Of a DNA stretch of 64,000 bases, positions 12,614-18,689 are shown one piece after another. Below the pieces are notes generated by a model. That model was not told the DNA's origin. It saw nothing but the letters and a program-made list of their open reading frames with translations, and made no database searches. The stretch comes from Bacteroidales bacterium (GTDB lineage Bacteria > Bacteroidota > Bacteroidia > Bacteroidales > G963667975): contig OY764079.1 in assembly GCA_963667975.1 (NCBI GenBank), forward strand, positions 1,428,586-1,492,585. The letters are read 5' to 3'. Both the position numbers and the translations under genes were made by a program. Position 1 is the first letter of the stretch; every line of letters starts with the position of its first letter.

Positions 12614-12884
12614 GTGAATGTAGAGATTGCTGTTTTTATCTCATGCAGCAAAGATGATTCTTCAGACAACAATTCCGCAAATCAAAATAAGATTTGCAAT
12701 GGAGTAACGAGTAACAGCATTATACCTCTTAAACAGGGAGATGCATGGACTTGGACTACATTAGGTTTTGGAAGCATCATTGAAACTGTGGTTGGTAAAA
12801 AAACGATTAACGCTGTAGAGTATTTTGATGTTACGCACCTTGAAACAGCGTTTTCTCAAACAAATCATCATTATTACAGAGTTC
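12614..12884 (+). pseudogene. 5' fragment of a small lipoprotein-like gene disrupted by IS insertion
   Basis: The ORF has a lipobox-like AVFISCSKDD and reads ...QTNHHYYRV before entering IS sequence. It is in frame with the 3' fragment at 16250. The signal peptide is unusually short (GTG start). Confidence 0.6.
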
Positions 12885-12913
12885 TGACTAACGTCAAATT
12901 TTAGTATTAATAA

Positions 12914-14272
12914 TCAATTAGTTACAAATTCAAAGTTTTCTTTTGAAAGTTCAAATTTAGTAATTTGTTTTTGAATACGCTTCACTAATCCCAACTTTCT
13001 TTTTTGGTCGAGATATAAGTATTCTTTTGGATTATAATAAGGCTTGTTTTTGACGACCATATTCCAAATAATCACAGCTAATTTTCTTGCTGTGGCAGAA
13101 ATTGCAGAAACTCGTCCTTTGCGAAAATTTATTTTCTGGAAGAAATCTCTCAATGGGGTTGATTCTTTAAGATTCCCTATTGCATTTGCTGCATTACGCA
13201 AAGCTATCTTAAGTCGATTACTTCCTTTGGGAACTTTGCTCGAGAGAATTTTTCCACCCGAAATTTTATTGTTGGGTGCTAATCTGAGCCAGCTTGCAAA
13301 ATGTTTGGCTGTCGTGAATTGTTTAATTCCTTCTAATCCAACTTCACTCATAATTGATAGAACTGTCGAATAACTCATTCCTTCAATCGCCATCAAATCA
13401 ACACCTTCAAAATACTGATACGATTTCATGTTTAGGTCGATATTCTTTGGTGAGTTCTTATTGATTTTTTTATGTGGCTTTTTCTCGATGTGATGCTGCC
13501 TTTTATTGTCGTCATTTTCAATAATCTTGTCCAGCATTTTCTGAATTTCAATATCGCATTGCCCTATTTTTGTTTGAAACATCTGGTACATATCTAGTTC
13601 TTGTTTCAGGGCAAACAGATAGTCTTCCCGTCCGTTGCTATGAAGGGCTTTAGCTATTTCTTCTCTGGATTTTCGACAGTTGTAATGACGCAATTCGGAT
13701 AATTTCTCAGGATTTGTTTCTCCTTCGCATATCGCTTTTATTATGGCTAATCCGGTTTGTCCGACAATATCATTCACAACCACATCTAAACGCAAATTTA
13801 AAAGCCGCAAATATTTCTGCATTTTCTTGCATGCAGATGCCGACGAATCCAGTAAAAGTGCTCTTTGACGGCAATAGGTTCTTAATTGTTCGGTTTGTTT
13901 GTCGGGTAAAAAACTATTTGACAACAGACCTAAACTATGTAGCTTTTGTATCCACTGGCAGTCTTTTATGTCGGTCTTCTTTCCTTTTATGTTCTTGGTG
14001 AATTTACCATTGCACAATATCACTTCAATACCTTCCGACAATAATACTGCATACAATGATTGCCAATAAGTACCGGTGCTTTCTAATGCAACTGTTTTGA
14101 TTTTGTTCTCCTTAAACCATAATGCCATTCTTTTAAGGTCGTCATTGAATACGCCAAATTCTTGCACTTCATCGGATCTTTGCCCTACGGCTGCCCAGTG
14201 TGAACGACTGCCTATGTCGACTCCCGCCGCATTTGGGTTGACTACTTCCATACTAATCTCTTTTTGTTCCAT
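12914..14272 (-). CDS. IS110-family transposase/recombinase
   Basis: 452-aa ORF with N-terminal AAGVDIGSRSHWAAVG (DEDD RuvC-like domain) and a C-terminal Transposase_20-like region (IEGMSYSTVLSIMSEVG...FASWLRLAPNNKISGGK). Confidence 0.9.
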   Translation of the reverse strand: MEQKEISMEVVNPNAAGVDIGSRSHWAAVGQRSDEVQEFGVFNDDLKRMALWFKENKIKTVALESTGTYWQSLYAVLLSEGIEVILCNGKFTKNIKGKKTDIKDCQWIQKLHSLGLLSNSFLPDKQTEQLRTYCRQRALLLDSSASACKKMQKYLRLLNLRLDVVVNDIVGQTGLAIIKAICEGETNPEKLSELRHYNCRKSREEIAKALHSNGREDYLFALKQELDMYQMFQTKIGQCDIEIQKMLDKIIENDDNKRQHHIEKKPHKKINKNSPKNIDLNMKSYQYFEGVDLMAIEGMSYSTVLSIMSEVGLEGIKQFTTAKHFASWLRLAPNNKISGGKILSSKVPKGSNRLKIALRNAANAIGNLKESTPLRDFFQKINFRKGRVSAISATARKLAVIIWNMVVKNKPYYNPKEYLYLDQKRKLGLVKRIQKQITKFELSKENFEFVTN

Positions 14273-14532
14273 CGTCCTAATTGTTTAAAAATTAACTCAA
14301 TGGAGACGTGCTTTTGGCATGTTGAATTATTCTGATCGGGGTTCCCGAAGTTTCGGGACCGCCACTTTTGTCATCGCATACATCTCAACCAGGATTGCGC
14401 TCGTACTCATGAGTAACAGTTCTAAAATCGGCCTTGCATTGAGCTGTTCTTTCATACGTGTTCCTGACGATTTCGTTAGCTTGATTTGTTAATCTCTTTT
14501 GGTATAGGTAGGATTGCTGCCAACGGCAGTTC
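14273..14532 (-). ncRNA. candidate IS110 bridge/seek RNA encoded in the 5' non-coding end
   Basis: This is a 260-nt non-coding leader upstream of the recombinase. It contains hairpins at 14340-14360 and 14517-14529 and a palindrome TACTCATGAGTA. Three GTTC-containing motifs resemble the target junction and the element end. Confidence 0.45.
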
Positions 14533-16249
14533 GTCTAAAAACCTCCGCTTAGTGCAATTTTTTGCTCAAATTTAAGCCGTTTTAAGGGGATTTCAAAAAT
14601 ATATCTGGAATACTTTTGGTAAAAAAATTGTTTGCTATATTTGAGCTTTTGAAGGGATATAAAGTTGAATAACTGAACAAAACGTAAAACCAGTATCCTT
14701 AGATATTTCTTGAGCATTTCTGTATCAAGAATATTCATTAGTCGACGTAAATTGTACGCAATAAACATAAATCCAACATCGGAACTTGCCCTGTCTTTGC
14801 CTTTCTTTGTTAGAATATAACTAAATCCCCATTGCCTCTTTATCGTTCCGTAAGGATGCTCTACTATTGACTGTCGTTTTTTGTATAAATCCTTATTGTT
14901 CTCAATATTTATTTTGTTGTTTTCTATGTATTTAGCAAATTCACTGCGTTCAAGTACACGCCCATTTCCTCGTATGTTCTTTGTACAAAGACTTAATTTT
15001 GAGCAAATCTTGCATGCTGAAGTCTTGTATTGTTGAACCTTGATATTTGCCCGATATCTTCCCCTGCTTTTGGCGTACCAAGAGCCATTGGTGCTCAAGA
15101 TGCTCCCTTCAGGACATGTATAGGTATTGGCTTGTTCGTTATACGTAAAATTAGCAATATTATATTGGCTATCTGGGGCATTCGATGCTACATTTGGTAC
15201 TGCTACCAGTGCTGTGATGTCTAATTCATGGGCAATTTTCATTTCCGAACCAGTGTGATAGCCTTTGTCGTAAAGTGCCGTAAAGTCATTTGTGCGTAAA
15301 ATGGATTTTGCTCTACGGAGCATCTCGCCCATAGCTTTGCTGTCATTATTGTTGGTTACCTTGTAGTCTATTGGTAAATAGTGATTTGCATCAACCGTGG
15401 TTTGAATATTATAAGCTACTTCGGTTATATTGTTTCGAGTAATCATTTGACGGCTTTCCGGGTCGGATGTTGAAACCTGGGCTTGCCCTGTTTCGCTAAT
15501 TTGTTTTTCGATGGCTTTGTATCCTTGTTTTCGTTGATTTTGTTTGTTGATTTCATTTTCAATTTCTGCTTTTTGATCACCATCGGCAGTAGAAAGCATA
15601 TTGCTATATTCCTCAATTTTATTCTCGATATAGGCTACATGGCGGTCGATTTTATCTTGATTGTAATTGTTTTTTTTGCTGTTTTGTGCTCTGAGTTTGG
15701 TACTGTCGCCAGCAATCAAAGTACCTCCAATCAAATCAAAATGTTGTGCTATTTTAACGGTAGATCTAAACACGTTTTTTATGGCTTTGGGATTGTTTTT
15801 ACGGAAGTTTGATATCGTATTATGGTCGGGTTGCAAGCCTTTTAGTAACCAAATAACTTCGATATTTCGTTTACATTCCTTTTCTAAATCACGAGATGAA
15901 CGTATTTTATTCAAATATCCATAAATGAATAGCTTAAGTAAATCTGCCGGATGGTATGCTGGACGACCATTGTCAACAAATTCCATGTCGAAACCAAATT
16001 CCTCCGGCTTTATACTATCTACAAAAAGGTCAATAGTACGGACTTCATTATCCTTTTCGATGGTTTCGTCCAAACAACGAGTGTTAATCTCTACCTGATG
16101 TCTGTTTATGCCATTTATAAACTTCATAAAAAAATACTGGTTTAATTATATAGCAAATATAATGAAAATCAGATAATTAAATCAAGTACAAATTATAAAT
16201 TATTAACAATCAGAATGTTGATAAAATCAGGCAATGGCGGTTTTTAGAC
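14533..16249 (-). mobile_element. IS1182-family insertion sequence (about 1.72 kb)
   Basis: Terminal inverted repeats are GTCTAAAAACCTCC (14533-) and GGCGGTTTTTAGAC (-16249), with 11 perfect bp and 14 of 16 overall. They flank a single transposase ORF. Confidence 0.85.
14535..16127 (-). CDS. IS1182-family DDE transposase
   Basis: 530-aa ORF. The N-terminal InsH/DUF772-like region reads GRPAYHPADLLKLFIYGYLNKIRSSRDLEKECKRNIEVIWLL, followed by a C-terminal DDE domain. The stop codon lies inside the left IR. Confidence 0.9.
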   Translation of the reverse strand: MKFINGINRHQVEINTRCLDETIEKDNEVRTIDLFVDSIKPEEFGFDMEFVDNGRPAYHPADLLKLFIYGYLNKIRSSRDLEKECKRNIEVIWLLKGLQPDHNTISNFRKNNPKAIKNVFRSTVKIAQHFDLIGGTLIAGDSTKLRAQNSKKNNYNQDKIDRHVAYIENKIEEYSNMLSTADGDQKAEIENEINKQNQRKQGYKAIEKQISETGQAQVSTSDPESRQMITRNNITEVAYNIQTTVDANHYLPIDYKVTNNNDSKAMGEMLRRAKSILRTNDFTALYDKGYHTGSEMKIAHELDITALVAVPNVASNAPDSQYNIANFTYNEQANTYTCPEGSILSTNGSWYAKSRGRYRANIKVQQYKTSACKICSKLSLCTKNIRGNGRVLERSEFAKYIENNKINIENNKDLYKKRQSIVEHPYGTIKRQWGFSYILTKKGKDRASSDVGFMFIAYNLRRLMNILDTEMLKKYLRILVLRFVQLFNFISLQKLKYSKQFFYQKYSRYIFEIPLKRLKFEQKIALSGGF

Positions 16250-16563
16250 AGTCTGACGGAGGTGTCTATCAGAATTTTTCGGAAAATCAAACAAATGAAT
16301 ATTTGTTAATCCCTGTTAATCCAACAGTTGGCCAAAACTGGCAGATTCAGGGGGCTATTTACATGGATAAAAGAACGGTAAAAAGTCTTACAGCAACGGT
16401 AAAAACGTCAAAATGTACATATTCAAATTGCATTGTAATTGACGAATCAAATACAAGCAACGGTTCGGTTATTTCAACTTTATATTATAAAAAGGGTATT
16501 GGATTGGTTAAGTCAACAAGTACTTATATTAATGAAGAGTTGAAGGAAGTAACTTTGAATTAA
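16250..16563 (+). pseudogene. 3' fragment of the IS-disrupted lipoprotein-like gene
   Basis: The frame continues (Q)SDGGVYQNFSENQ... The ATG at 16234 in the ORF track lies inside the IS1182 inverted repeat and is an artefact. Confidence 0.6.
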
Positions 16564-16665: not shown

Positions 16666-16673
16666 TACTTTTG
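16666..16673 (+). promoter_or_regulatory. candidate Bacteroidota -7 promoter box
   Basis: TACTTTTG matches the established Bacteroides -7 consensus TAnnTTTG and lies 37 nt upstream of the gatE-like ATG. Confidence 0.35.
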
Positions 16674-16709: not shown

Positions 16710-18689
16710 ATGAACCAACCCTTTGATCCCCGAAAGAATTACGAAGAAACCAAAAAATCAATAGGTTATGTAGTTCGAAAACAGGCAAAACAACAGGATT
16801 ATGATCGTATTGGATTCAAGTCCGGTCTTGAAGTTCATCAACAATTGCTCACGAAAGAAAAACTTTTTTGTCGCTGTCCGGCTGGTGTCTATCAGCATCA
16901 TGATGATTTTGATGCTGAAATTATTCGCCACATGCGTCCGACCCTGAGTGAATTAGGTGAGTATGATGGTACAGCTCTGATGGAGTTTAAAACCAAAAAG
17001 GAAATAACCTATCGCCTGAAAAACCGTACTTCCTGTACCTATGAAGTGGATGATACTCCTCCTTTTCCAATCAACCGTGAAGCATTGCAAATTGCGATTG
17101 AAATTTCGCTTCTTTCTAAGCTTAACATTGTAGGAGAAGTACATATTACTCGTAAACAGTATCTGGATGGAAGTATTCCTGCTGGTTTTCAGCGTACAGC
17201 GATTATTGGAGTGGAAGGTGAAATTCAGTTAAAAAATAAAAAGGTACGCCTGATTCAACTTAGTATTGAAGAGGATTCCTGTCGTGAAATTTCCGATATT
17301 GGACACAAACGTATTTATAAGACTGATCGTTTGGGAATGCCTTTGATTGAAACGGTAACTTATCCGGAAATGCTGAATCCAGATGAAGTGAAGGAAGCTT
17401 GTGATTATATTCGCTTTCTGAACAGAAGTACCAATAAAGTCCGTACCGGAATTGGGGCTGGACGACAGGATGTTAATGTTAGCTGTAAAGGTGGTCATCG
17501 TGTTGAAATTAAAGGAGTTGCCCATACAAAATGGATTCCTGAACTTACTCATAATGAATGTTTTCGTCAATGGGCTCTTTTAAATATTCGCAATCTTCTT
17601 TTGAAACAAATCAAAGATGTGAAGAGTTGGACAATTGTTCCGAAAGAGCTTGATTATAAAAAACTTAAATTTCCTTGCGATAGCATAAAAGTCGCTCGTG
17701 AAAACCATGATAAACTTTACGTGGTAAATCTGCCGGGTTTTAAAGGAATCTTATCTCATTTTACCCAACTTGGACAGATGTTTGCAAATGAAATCAGCGA
17801 TCGTTTAAAAGTAATTGCCTGTATTGAGAAACCCAATATGGTTCATTCAGAAGAACTGGATGCTCGTATTTCGGCTGATGATTTGGCAATTATTTGTAAG
17901 CTGGTTAATGCAGAAGAAAATGACGCTCAGATTTTGTTTTGGGGACCCAGAGAGGATATTAAAACCGCATTAGATGTTATTGAAGAACGTTGTAAAATGG
18001 CTTTTGAAGGCGTTCCTCCAGAAACACGTAAATCTTTTGCTGACGGATCTACCATTTTTGAACGTGTACTCCCGGGTGCTGACCGTATGTATCCAGATAC
18101 TGATAGCAAACCCATTCCATTAGCTGATTCTTACATCGAAGAGCTCAGAAAACAGATACCAGAGGAGGTTGTTTATCGCTATCGTCAGTTGCAGGAATGG
18201 AATGTCCCTGAGGATTCCTATTCATTTATACTGAGTAAAAATCTTTATCCTCTCATTGAGAAACTGGTGAATGAACTAACGATGAATCCTGTTTTTGCAG
18301 GAACATTTATAGGCCATACTTACAAACATGTATTGGGACATTACAAAATTGCCGATACGTTTACAAGCGAACATATTTTTGATCTCTTCCAGTATTTGTT
18401 GAAAAATGATCTGGATTTGGCATTAGCTCGCAAAATGATGCCAATAGTTCTGGAACATCCTAAAATGGATTTTGACTCAGTGCTTACGAGCATTAAGTTT
18501 AGACGAACTTCTGCTGGTGAAATCATTTCAAATATTCCTTTCCTGAAAGACAAATTCAGCAAGATACGTCGTGATGCTAGCAAAACAGACCAGATCAACT
18601 GGATTATGGGAGAACTTCAACAACAGGCATTAGGAAACATGCCGTTGGTTGAACTTTATAATAATGTATGTAAGATTATTGAAGAATAA
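16710..18689 (+). CDS. gatE: archaeal-type Glu-tRNA(Gln) amidotransferase subunit E homolog (GatB/GatE family)
   Basis: 659-aa ORF that I judge from memory of GatE motifs to be GatE-like along its length. Motifs include GLEVHQQL..KLFCRC, RPTLSELGEYD, DDTPPFPIN, GFQRT, LSIEEDS, DRLGMPLIE, GAGRQDVNVS, VEIKGV and GVPPETRK. It also has a YqeY-like tail. Confidence 0.8.
   Translation: MNQPFDPRKNYEETKKSIGYVVRKQAKQQDYDRIGFKSGLEVHQQLLTKEKLFCRCPAGVYQHHDDFDAEIIRHMRPTLSELGEYDGTALMEFKTKKEITYRLKNRTSCTYEVDDTPPFPINREALQIAIEISLLSKLNIVGEVHITRKQYLDGSIPAGFQRTAIIGVEGEIQLKNKKVRLIQLSIEEDSCREISDIGHKRIYKTDRLGMPLIETVTYPEMLNPDEVKEACDYIRFLNRSTNKVRTGIGAGRQDVNVSCKGGHRVEIKGVAHTKWIPELTHNECFRQWALLNIRNLLLKQIKDVKSWTIVPKELDYKKLKFPCDSIKVARENHDKLYVVNLPGFKGILSHFTQLGQMFANEISDRLKVIACIEKPNMVHSEELDARISADDLAIICKLVNAEENDAQILFWGPREDIKTALDVIEERCKMAFEGVPPETRKSFADGSTIFERVLPGADRMYPDTDSKPIPLADSYIEELRKQIPEEVVYRYRQLQEWNVPEDSYSFILSKNLYPLIEKLVNELTMNPVFAGTFIGHTYKHVLGHYKIADTFTSEHIFDLFQYLLKNDLDLALARKMMPIVLEHPKMDFDSVLTSIKFRRTSAGEIISNIPFLKDKFSKIRRDASKTDQINWIMGELQQQALGNMPLVELYNNVCKIIEE

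Follow-up and report, generated by a model that had tools for sequence, protein, structure and literature searches.

An archaeal-type GatE in a Bacteroidales genome, with an intact gatD encoded at a distant locus

The gatE gene and its product

The 64,000-nucleotide stretch analysed here (Bacteroidales bacterium assembly GCA_963667975.1, contig OY764079.1, positions 1,428,586 to 1,492,585), referred to below as the window, contains gatE, the gene for subunit E of the archaeal-type tRNA-dependent amidotransferase GatDE. In genome coordinates the gene lies at C1:1445295-1447274, C1 being the single 3.93-Mb contig of an assembly estimated to be 96.9% complete, and its frame is open across all 659 codons. 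The gene and the parts of its product are as follows.

16710..18689, plus strand: gatE, subunit E of archaeal-type tRNA-dependent amidotransferase (GatDE); 659 codons plus stop, assigned from profiles and fold
16710..16796, plus strand: N-terminal extension particular to the clade, residues 1-29, which archaeal GatE lacks
16797..17609, plus strand: catalytic cradle domain, first part, residues 30-300, which holds invariant family residues
17610..17999, plus strand: GatE-specific insertion domain, about residues 301-430, alpha/beta, which separates GatE from GatB
18000..18140, plus strand: cradle domain, second part, about residues 431-477, carrying the GVPPETRK and RMYPDTD stretch
18141..18686, plus strand: C-terminal helical and YqeY-like tail, about residues 478-659, placed by profile alignment and AlphaFold2 model

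The product is a genuine GatE, the kinase/transamidase subunit of GatDE, and not a GatB. It scored 464.4 bits against NF003107, the NCBIfam GatE model (cut-off 456; residues 28-640 aligned), and 411.5 bits against the GatE model TIGR00134 (cut-off 319.55), whereas GatB models gave at most 113.6 bits and failed their curated thresholds of at least 314.8 bits. In phmmer searches of solved structures, archaeal GatE ranked first (2D6F_C, 5e-87; 1ZQ1_C, 1e-82). An AlphaFold2 model, made from an input alignment of 40 sequences, had a predicted local distance difference test score (pLDDT) of 91 and a predicted template modelling score (pTM) of 0.87. Its full-length structural matches in Foldseek were GatE chains, not GatB: the target-normalised template modelling (TM) score was 0.83 to Pyrococcus abyssi GatE (1ZQ1_C) and 0.81 to Methanothermobacter GatE (2D6F), against 0.56-0.76 for GatB chains (0.34-0.49 when normalised to the query). 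The original prediction, made by reading the sequence alone, had proposed an archaeal-type GatE rather than a GatB; the comparison of GatE and GatB profiles that it called for came out as GatE, and the fold agrees. The motifs that it listed, GLEVHQQL and KLFCRC (with four residues between them), RPTLSELGEYD, DDTPPFP, GFQRT, EEDS, DRLGMPLIE, GRQDVNVS, VEIKGV and GVPPETRK, are all in the translation.

Conservation differs along the protein, as judged from 80 homologs divided into 30-residue blocks. The cradle domain is the best conserved part, with blocks 77-89% identical to the query, and GatE matches the Pfam family PF02934 (GatB_N) at 3e-44. Across 40 bacterial and archaeal GatE sequences the invariant residues of its first part are G39, E41, H43, K51-C56, R148, K149, D153, G154 and G159-T163, followed by E187, E188, P211, L212, E214, R252, D254, N256, S258, E266, K268 and G269; in the second part, E438, R440 and R452 are invariant and G434, P436, R459-P462, T464 and D465 nearly so. 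All residues that are invariant over these 40 sequences are retained, so that the metal, ATP and substrate motifs, whose conservation had been singled out for checking, appear to be intact. The 277 positions of the GatB_N profile are spread over residues 38-477, and the model places an alpha/beta domain (pLDDT 79-96) in the interior of the stretched match, which bears out the mid-protein insertion domain expected of a GatE. This domain is the least conserved part (blocks 31-67% identical).

The predicted YqeY-like tail was likewise recovered. Residues 473-658 are all-helical in the model (pLDDT 88-97), and the NF003107 alignment extends to profile position 607 of 630. PF02637 (GatB_Yqey) was not reported for this GatE at E <=0.01 and was recorded for several close homologs. 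Blocks in the tail are 40-59% identical. In archaeal GatE the tail is the part that binds the tRNA D-loop, and the insertion and tail domains read the tRNA.

An extra N-terminal segment had also been noticed and is present, although in the alignment D30 is paired with D2 of chain C of 2D6F and the length of the segment is therefore about 29 residues, not the roughly 35 first proposed. Among 80 Bacteroidales homologs N10 is 100% conserved, and Y11, G19, Y20, R23 and Q28 are conserved in at least 94%. The model predicts an ordered helix at residues 7-18 with pLDDT of about 97. For other bacterial-clade GatE representatives the alignment begins only at about residue 25-32, where archaeal GatE also starts.

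An intact gatD about 339 kb away

The glutaminase of GatDE is GatD, an asparaginase-like protein with an additional N-terminal domain. This partner subunit is encoded on the same chromosome, about 339 kb from gatE.

C1:1105364-1106749, minus strand: gatD, 461 aa, identified by TIGR02153 and catalytic motifs

The TIGR02153 match (C1:1105439-1106641) scored 499.9 bits against a cut-off of 324. GatD aligned over its full length with the GatD chains of 1ZQ1 and 2D6F (phmmer, 2e-116 and 6e-115), and in alignment with 1ZQ1_A and 2D6F_A it retains GTGGTIASR, HGTDT and VRKMH of the asparaginase-type active site. A second, weaker TIGR02153 match (209.6 bits) is an ordinary asparaginase-like gene that is found in most relatives too. 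Profile searches detected no gatD in the 64-kb window or within 300 kb of gatE, which agrees with the statement in the original prediction that no gatD-like gene flanks it. The wider suggestion of a GatE without a GatD partner did not survive, given the canonical, intact gatD at a distance and the co-occurrence of GatD and GatE across relatives. The prediction had named as grounds for refutation a canonical gatD together with a pair already well described for this phylum; the canonical gatD is indeed present, but our literature searches turned up no account of the pair from this phylum. The gatD gene has a GC content of 42.4% against 36.8% for the genome, a value above that of 96% of 2-kb genome windows, unlike gatE. 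Across relatives GatD is conserved more than GatE (73-88% vs 65-70% identity).

Separation of an ancestral gatE-gatD operon

In the 80 closest related gatE loci, gatD lies directly after gatE on the same strand in 61, mostly 6-450 bp downstream. The 11 loci nearest to the present one (GatE 69-98% identical) have no adjacent gatD in the 2-6 kb of downstream sequence available, and all five of the unlinked close genomes that were tested have an intact gatD elsewhere (87-99% identity). Among the 15 GatDE-positive relatives of the order-level sample described below, 12 are linked and three unlinked (G000, G001 and G022). Because the genes are linked in most loci and unlinked in all nearest relatives, adjacency is probably the ancestral state and the separation is old at the family level; on the way to the present genome, the two genes of an ancestral gatE-gatD operon came apart. 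Synteny gave no support for a single translocation, the flanks of gatD being common only to the same genus.

Both genes are under strong purifying selection. The ratio of nonsynonymous to synonymous substitution rates (dN/dS) against the ortholog of a same-genus genome was 0.028 for gatE (dS 0.295) and 0.011 for gatD (dS 0.245); against a genome of the split clade it was 0.083 and 0.056, respectively. That both genes remained intact and constrained after the loss of linkage argues that the two subunits are needed together.

Each gene apparently has its own promoter. The Bacteroidetes -7 promoter consensus is TAnnTTTG, and a box that fits it lies upstream of gatE.

16666..16673, plus strand: TACTTTTG box, Bacteroidetes -7 promoter-like, 44 nt upstream of the gatE ATG

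The same TACTTTTG octamer is found 40 nt upstream of the unlinked gatD. At the genome-wide rate, a 45-nt span would contain such a motif by chance in about 3% of cases, for each gene. The split is a natural experiment, and it also provides two separately promoted genes that are open to manipulation one by one.

Distribution and phylogeny

The nearest public record is a Bacteroidales metagenome-assembled chromosome at 98% identity, orthologs at 65-74% identity occur in many families, and 462 species-level genomes encode a GatE relative, mostly uncultured Bacteroidales, Lentimicrobiaceae, Prolixibacteraceae and Marinilabiliales. The survey of orthologs across Bacteroidota that had been suggested was carried out on two samples. 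In an order-level sample of 41 relatives, roughly one per family, GatE was above cut-off in 15; GatD was above cut-off in 14 of these, while in the remaining one (G014) its fragments lie at the ends of contigs. GatD was above cut-off and GatE not found in one further relative (G010), a 700-contig assembly. An even sample of 300 further Bacteroidota genomes contained GatE in 12, all from other classes. Five of the genomes from other classes (G142, G086, G098, G197 and G288) carry glutaminyl-tRNA synthetase (GlnRS), GatB (of GatCAB) and GatE together, which makes three systems touching the charging of Gln or Asn tRNA; in G098, glnS and gatE are about 1.4 kb apart.

At E <1e-30, 604 cluster representatives match GatE. 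A FastTree phylogeny of 125 full-length sequences, rooted at the midpoint and with few tips labelled by organism, separated two clades with 99% local support. In the clade of 40 rows, which holds the present GatE, the labels are those of Bacteroidales and of a candidate division CSSED10-310 bacterium; the labelled members of the 85-row clade are Heimdall-, Thor- and Parvarchaeota. On the phylogeny that had been called for, this GatE is therefore placed on a bacterial branch, outside the clade of labelled archaeal sequences; we claim no donor and no direction of transfer.

Within the order the distribution of GatDE is patchy and implies at least 4-7 gains or losses. One clade of nine Bacteroidales genomes has GatDE in eight and GatD only in the ninth, G010. 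The horizontal acquisition offered as one explanation in the original prediction is not recent: gatE has a native composition (38.0% GC vs 36.8% for the genome), it belongs to a separate bacterial clade, and it has been inherited within the Bacteroidales clade. The operon neighbours of GatE relatives, core envelope and housekeeping genes, were also counted toward long residence.

Synthetases and tRNAs

A genome-wide search for GatD, GatCAB, GlnRS and asparaginyl-tRNA synthetase (AsnRS), as had been recommended, recovered all but GatCAB. Profile searches identified GlnRS at 747 bits and AsnRS at 633 bits; there was no match to GatA or GatC in the genome, and gatE itself gave the sole hits to GatB models. 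The genome has one glutamyl-tRNA synthetase (GluRS) and one bacterial-type aspartyl-tRNA synthetase (AspRS). GatB was above cut-off in none of the 41 order-level relatives. As for acceptor stems, tRNA(Asn) has U1-A72 and G73, tRNA(Asp) has G1-C72, and tRNA(Glu) has G1-U72. In the ARAGORN output the single tRNA(Glu) gene (C1:1197160-1197235) has this G1-U72 wobble as its first acceptor pair. A tRNA(Gln)-CUG gene follows glnS in the same orientation at a distance of about 100 bp (C1:1267929-1269680), with GluRS 6 kb away, so that the genes of the direct pathway are loosely clustered.

A proposed role for GatDE as a working accessory enzyme

We propose, with a probability of about 0.5, that the split genes provide a working GatDE amidotransferase that serves as an accessory enzyme. 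By homology with the solved archaeal enzyme, GatE and the GatD encoded about 339 kb away would form a complex in which GatD releases ammonia from Gln or Asn. GatE would bind an acidic aminoacyl-tRNA, phosphorylate its side-chain carboxylate with ATP, and then amidate it. The likeliest substrate would be Glu-tRNA(Gln), yielding Gln-tRNA(Gln); by analogy with archaea we take this as the default, at roughly even odds. Such an enzyme would act in backup or in clean-up of mischarged tRNA and not as the main supply, because the cell has GlnRS, AsnRS and an apparently discriminating GluRS.

Several observations weigh against this reading. In Thermus thermophilus GluRS, changing Arg358 to Gln suffices to make the enzyme non-discriminating (PMC2978374). 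Arg392 of the GluRS in this genome aligns with T. thermophilus Arg358 (1J09 alignment), and all 40 relatives with a complete gene, GatDE-positive or -negative, have Arg at the equivalent position; this single-residue signature is suggestive of a GluRS of the discriminating type. Archaeal GatDE is reported to read the A1-U72 pair of tRNA(Gln) (PMC9499178). Both tRNA(Gln) genes of this genome (UUG and CUG) have U1-A72 and A73, not A1-U72. GlnRS is present in 40 of the 41 relatives, and in all five GatE-bearing genomes of other Bacteroidota classes both GlnRS and GatB are over their cut-offs beside GatDE. GatDE is thus never the only route: since GlnRS, and in the other classes GatCAB as well, coexists with it, it is not the sole source of Gln-tRNA(Gln) in any genome sampled. 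The canonical archaeal setting, with no GlnRS, a non-discriminating GluRS and an A1-U72 pair, is absent from this genome, which encodes GlnRS, has a GluRS that its signature residue assigns to the discriminating type, and has U1-A72 in tRNA(Gln); the difference lies in the pathway context and not in the protein family. We also looked for a synthetase partner co-evolving with GatDE, and neither the GluRS Arg358 column nor the AspRS anticodon-binding domain, in which no column, residue or indel tracks GatDE among relatives, gave a signal.

These points led us to consider, at somewhat less than even odds, that the bacterial GatDE branch is not for routine supply of Gln-tRNA(Gln) and has a distinct job, which may be tRNA-dependent asparagine synthesis, conditional rescue of mischarged tRNA, or action on another substrate. 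A distinct job would explain why GatDE is never the sole route, why GluRS appears to be discriminating, and why the pair has a clade-specific N-terminal helix and is at the same time under strong selection.

One form of this idea, in line with the repurposing raised in the original prediction, is that bacterial GatDE was recruited to a different substrate, for example a further acidic aminoacyl-tRNA, an RNA resembling tRNA or a carboxylate not carried by tRNA, outside routine decoding of Gln and Asn. GatDE is always extra beside complete direct pathways, in cells whose GluRS looks discriminating, and selection on it is nevertheless strong. The conserved N-terminal helix that archaeal GatE lacks could be read in the same way, as could the fact that GatE is least conserved in its insertion and tail domains, with which the archaeal enzyme reads tRNA. 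Still, GatE has kept its tail domain and every catalytic and family-invariant residue, its partner GatD has been kept too, the neighbourhoods offer no candidate substrate or linked gene, and the hypothesis is unspecific. We regard such a recruitment as possible but unlikely.

A more specific form is that GatDE makes asparagine on tRNA: a relaxed AspRS would form Asp-tRNA(Asn), which GatDE would amidate, much as GatCAB does in Thermus, Deinococcus and Bdellovibrio, where that enzyme is kept together with AsnRS and GlnRS (PMC4206432). The raw counts of asparagine synthetases are inverse to GatDE. AsnA occurs in one of the 15 GatDE-positive and 14 of the 25 GatDE-negative relatives, and a housekeeping-type AsnA or AsnB, by heuristic sorting, in 4-5 of 15 against 20 of 25; five GatDE-positive genomes have no AsnA or AsnB match. 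In the present genome, neither AsnA nor an AsnB of the E. coli type (about 555 aa) was found, leaving three long AsnB-family genes (654-668 aa; C1:328928-332622 and C1:2960423-2962213, two of them adjacent). In addition, tRNA(Asn) has the U1-A72 first pair in common with tRNA(Gln). These three genes are nevertheless over the curated cut-off, and when relatedness was controlled for on a tree of GluRS plus AspRS, GatDE against AsnA/AsnB gave four independent contrasts and no significant trend. An inverse association between GatDE and AsnA/AsnB is not claimed, since there are only four independent contrasts. In the anticodon-binding domain of the single AspRS neither residues nor indels follow the presence of GatDE, GatCAB already stands beside GatDE in other classes, and the archaeal enzyme is said to be specific for Glu-tRNA(Gln) (PMC8007984). 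Asparagine formation on tRNA therefore seems to us improbable.

The orphan reading, in which GatE works without GatD through free ammonia or another glutaminase, would fit the lack of gatD in the window and within 300 kb, but we consider it very improbable: an intact gatD is in the genome under purifying selection even stronger than that on gatE, GatD and GatE co-occur across relatives, and the unlinked genomes always keep both.

Relation to known systems

The accessory GatDE proposed here resembles the archaeal enzymes of Methanothermobacter thermautotrophicus (2D6F, with tRNA(Gln)) and Pyrococcus abyssi (1ZQ1) in the order of cradle, insertion and helical/YqeY-like tail, in its invariant residues, and in having a GatD partner of asparaginase-like type whose catalytic motifs are the same. 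Unlike them, it is found in a bacterial host on a separate branch, has the extra conserved N-terminal helix of about 29 residues and unlinked genes, and coexists with GlnRS, a GluRS of apparently discriminating type and a tRNA(Gln) bearing U1-A72 in place of A1-U72. With the gatE-gatD operons of environmental Bacteroidales and of other bacterial phyla it shares the orthologous group, the N-terminal extension and coexistence with GlnRS; the difference is that in this genome and its 11 closest relatives the genes are separated, whereas gatD mostly follows 6-450 bp after gatE in those operons. The GatB subunit of GatCAB (3IP4, 3AL0, 3KFU) has a homologous cradle and YqeY-like tail, and presumably the same chemistry, but it has no insertion domain and its partners are the amidase GatA and GatC. 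Retention of an amidotransferase although both direct synthetases are present is also seen for the GatCAB of Thermus, Deinococcus and Bdellovibrio (PMC4206432); that is another enzyme family, however, and a relaxed AspRS and a missing asparagine synthetase are established there only.

In reviews published between 2020 and 2022, GatDE is treated as archaeal or as confined to archaea (PMC7373986, PMC8007984, PMC9499178), and this distribution has been used in arguments about the early evolution of glutamine decoding (PMC9499178, PMC8007984, PMC7373986). A large and old bacterial GatDE branch, beside GlnRS and sometimes GatCAB, contradicts an archaea-only distribution. It also raises the question of why selection would favour a second or third amidation system where the usual mischarging synthetase signature is lacking. 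No paper describing a bacterial GatDE was found in the full-text literature searched, whose coverage leaves out most subscription journals. That bacterial relatives carry the GatE label in databases is already known, NCBI and JGI automatic annotation having assigned it. New are the unlinked arrangement with its selection data, the tests of GluRS and AspRS signatures, the phylogenetically controlled check on asparagine, and the conserved N-terminal helix.

Neighbouring genes and insertion sequences

The genes around gatE are as follows.

12614..12904, plus strand: 5' half of an interrupted small gene, which in the same-genus genome L021 forms a single 202-codon ORF together with the 3' half
12894..16255, minus strand: two insertion sequence (IS) elements side by side, 3,362 bp, with transposase open reading frames (ORFs) at 12914-14272 (452 aa) and 14535-16127 (530 aa)
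16234..16563, plus strand: 3' half of the interrupted gene, the next gene upstream of gatE; one ORF with the 5' half in L021
18935..20197, plus strand: CNNM/CBS/CorC_HlyC transporter-type gene (PF01595, PF00571, PF03471)

The original prediction had described the left neighbour as an IS-disrupted locus and the right neighbour as a CNNM-family gene, and both descriptions proved accurate: on the left a gene is split by two IS elements, and on the right Pfam identifies CNNM, CBS and CorC domains. The IS pair is missing in L021; there the two flanks meet and overlap by 3 bp. The 3' half of the interrupted gene matched no Pfam family. Near-full-length copies of the two elements number four and three in this genome, and by copy number both IS families look active. 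Separation of gatE from gatD by these elements was considered and rejected; the sister species does not have the IS pair, and yet its gatE and gatD are unlinked too. A recent acquisition or a non-functional, decaying remnant, for which one might cite the active IS elements directly upstream and the patchy order-level distribution with its at least 4-7 gains or losses, is hardly credible, given that the pair is absent from the sister species and sits in another gene, and that gatE has native GC (38.0% vs 36.8%), an open frame, a dN/dS of 0.028 and orthologs at 65-74% identity in many families.

The CNNM/CBS/CorC gene occupies the place held by gatD in most relatives. Across the 80 related loci the neighbours encode OstA/LptD-like, Amidase_3, MlaD, type IX secretion system (T9SS)-tail, amino-acid permease and TauE proteins, with no link to translation among them. 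In several of the split-clade genomes L024-L028, an amino-acid permease, a TauE-family gene and an ORF of about 155 aa precede gatE on the same strand; this conserved small ORF has no Pfam family. A free-standing ORF of about 190 aa (C1:1424338-1424643), located about 4 kb ahead of the window, shows a weak match, at 21.7 bits, to the YqeY-like tail of the GatE model, and similar small YqeY-like ORFs occur in relatives with and without GatDE alike.

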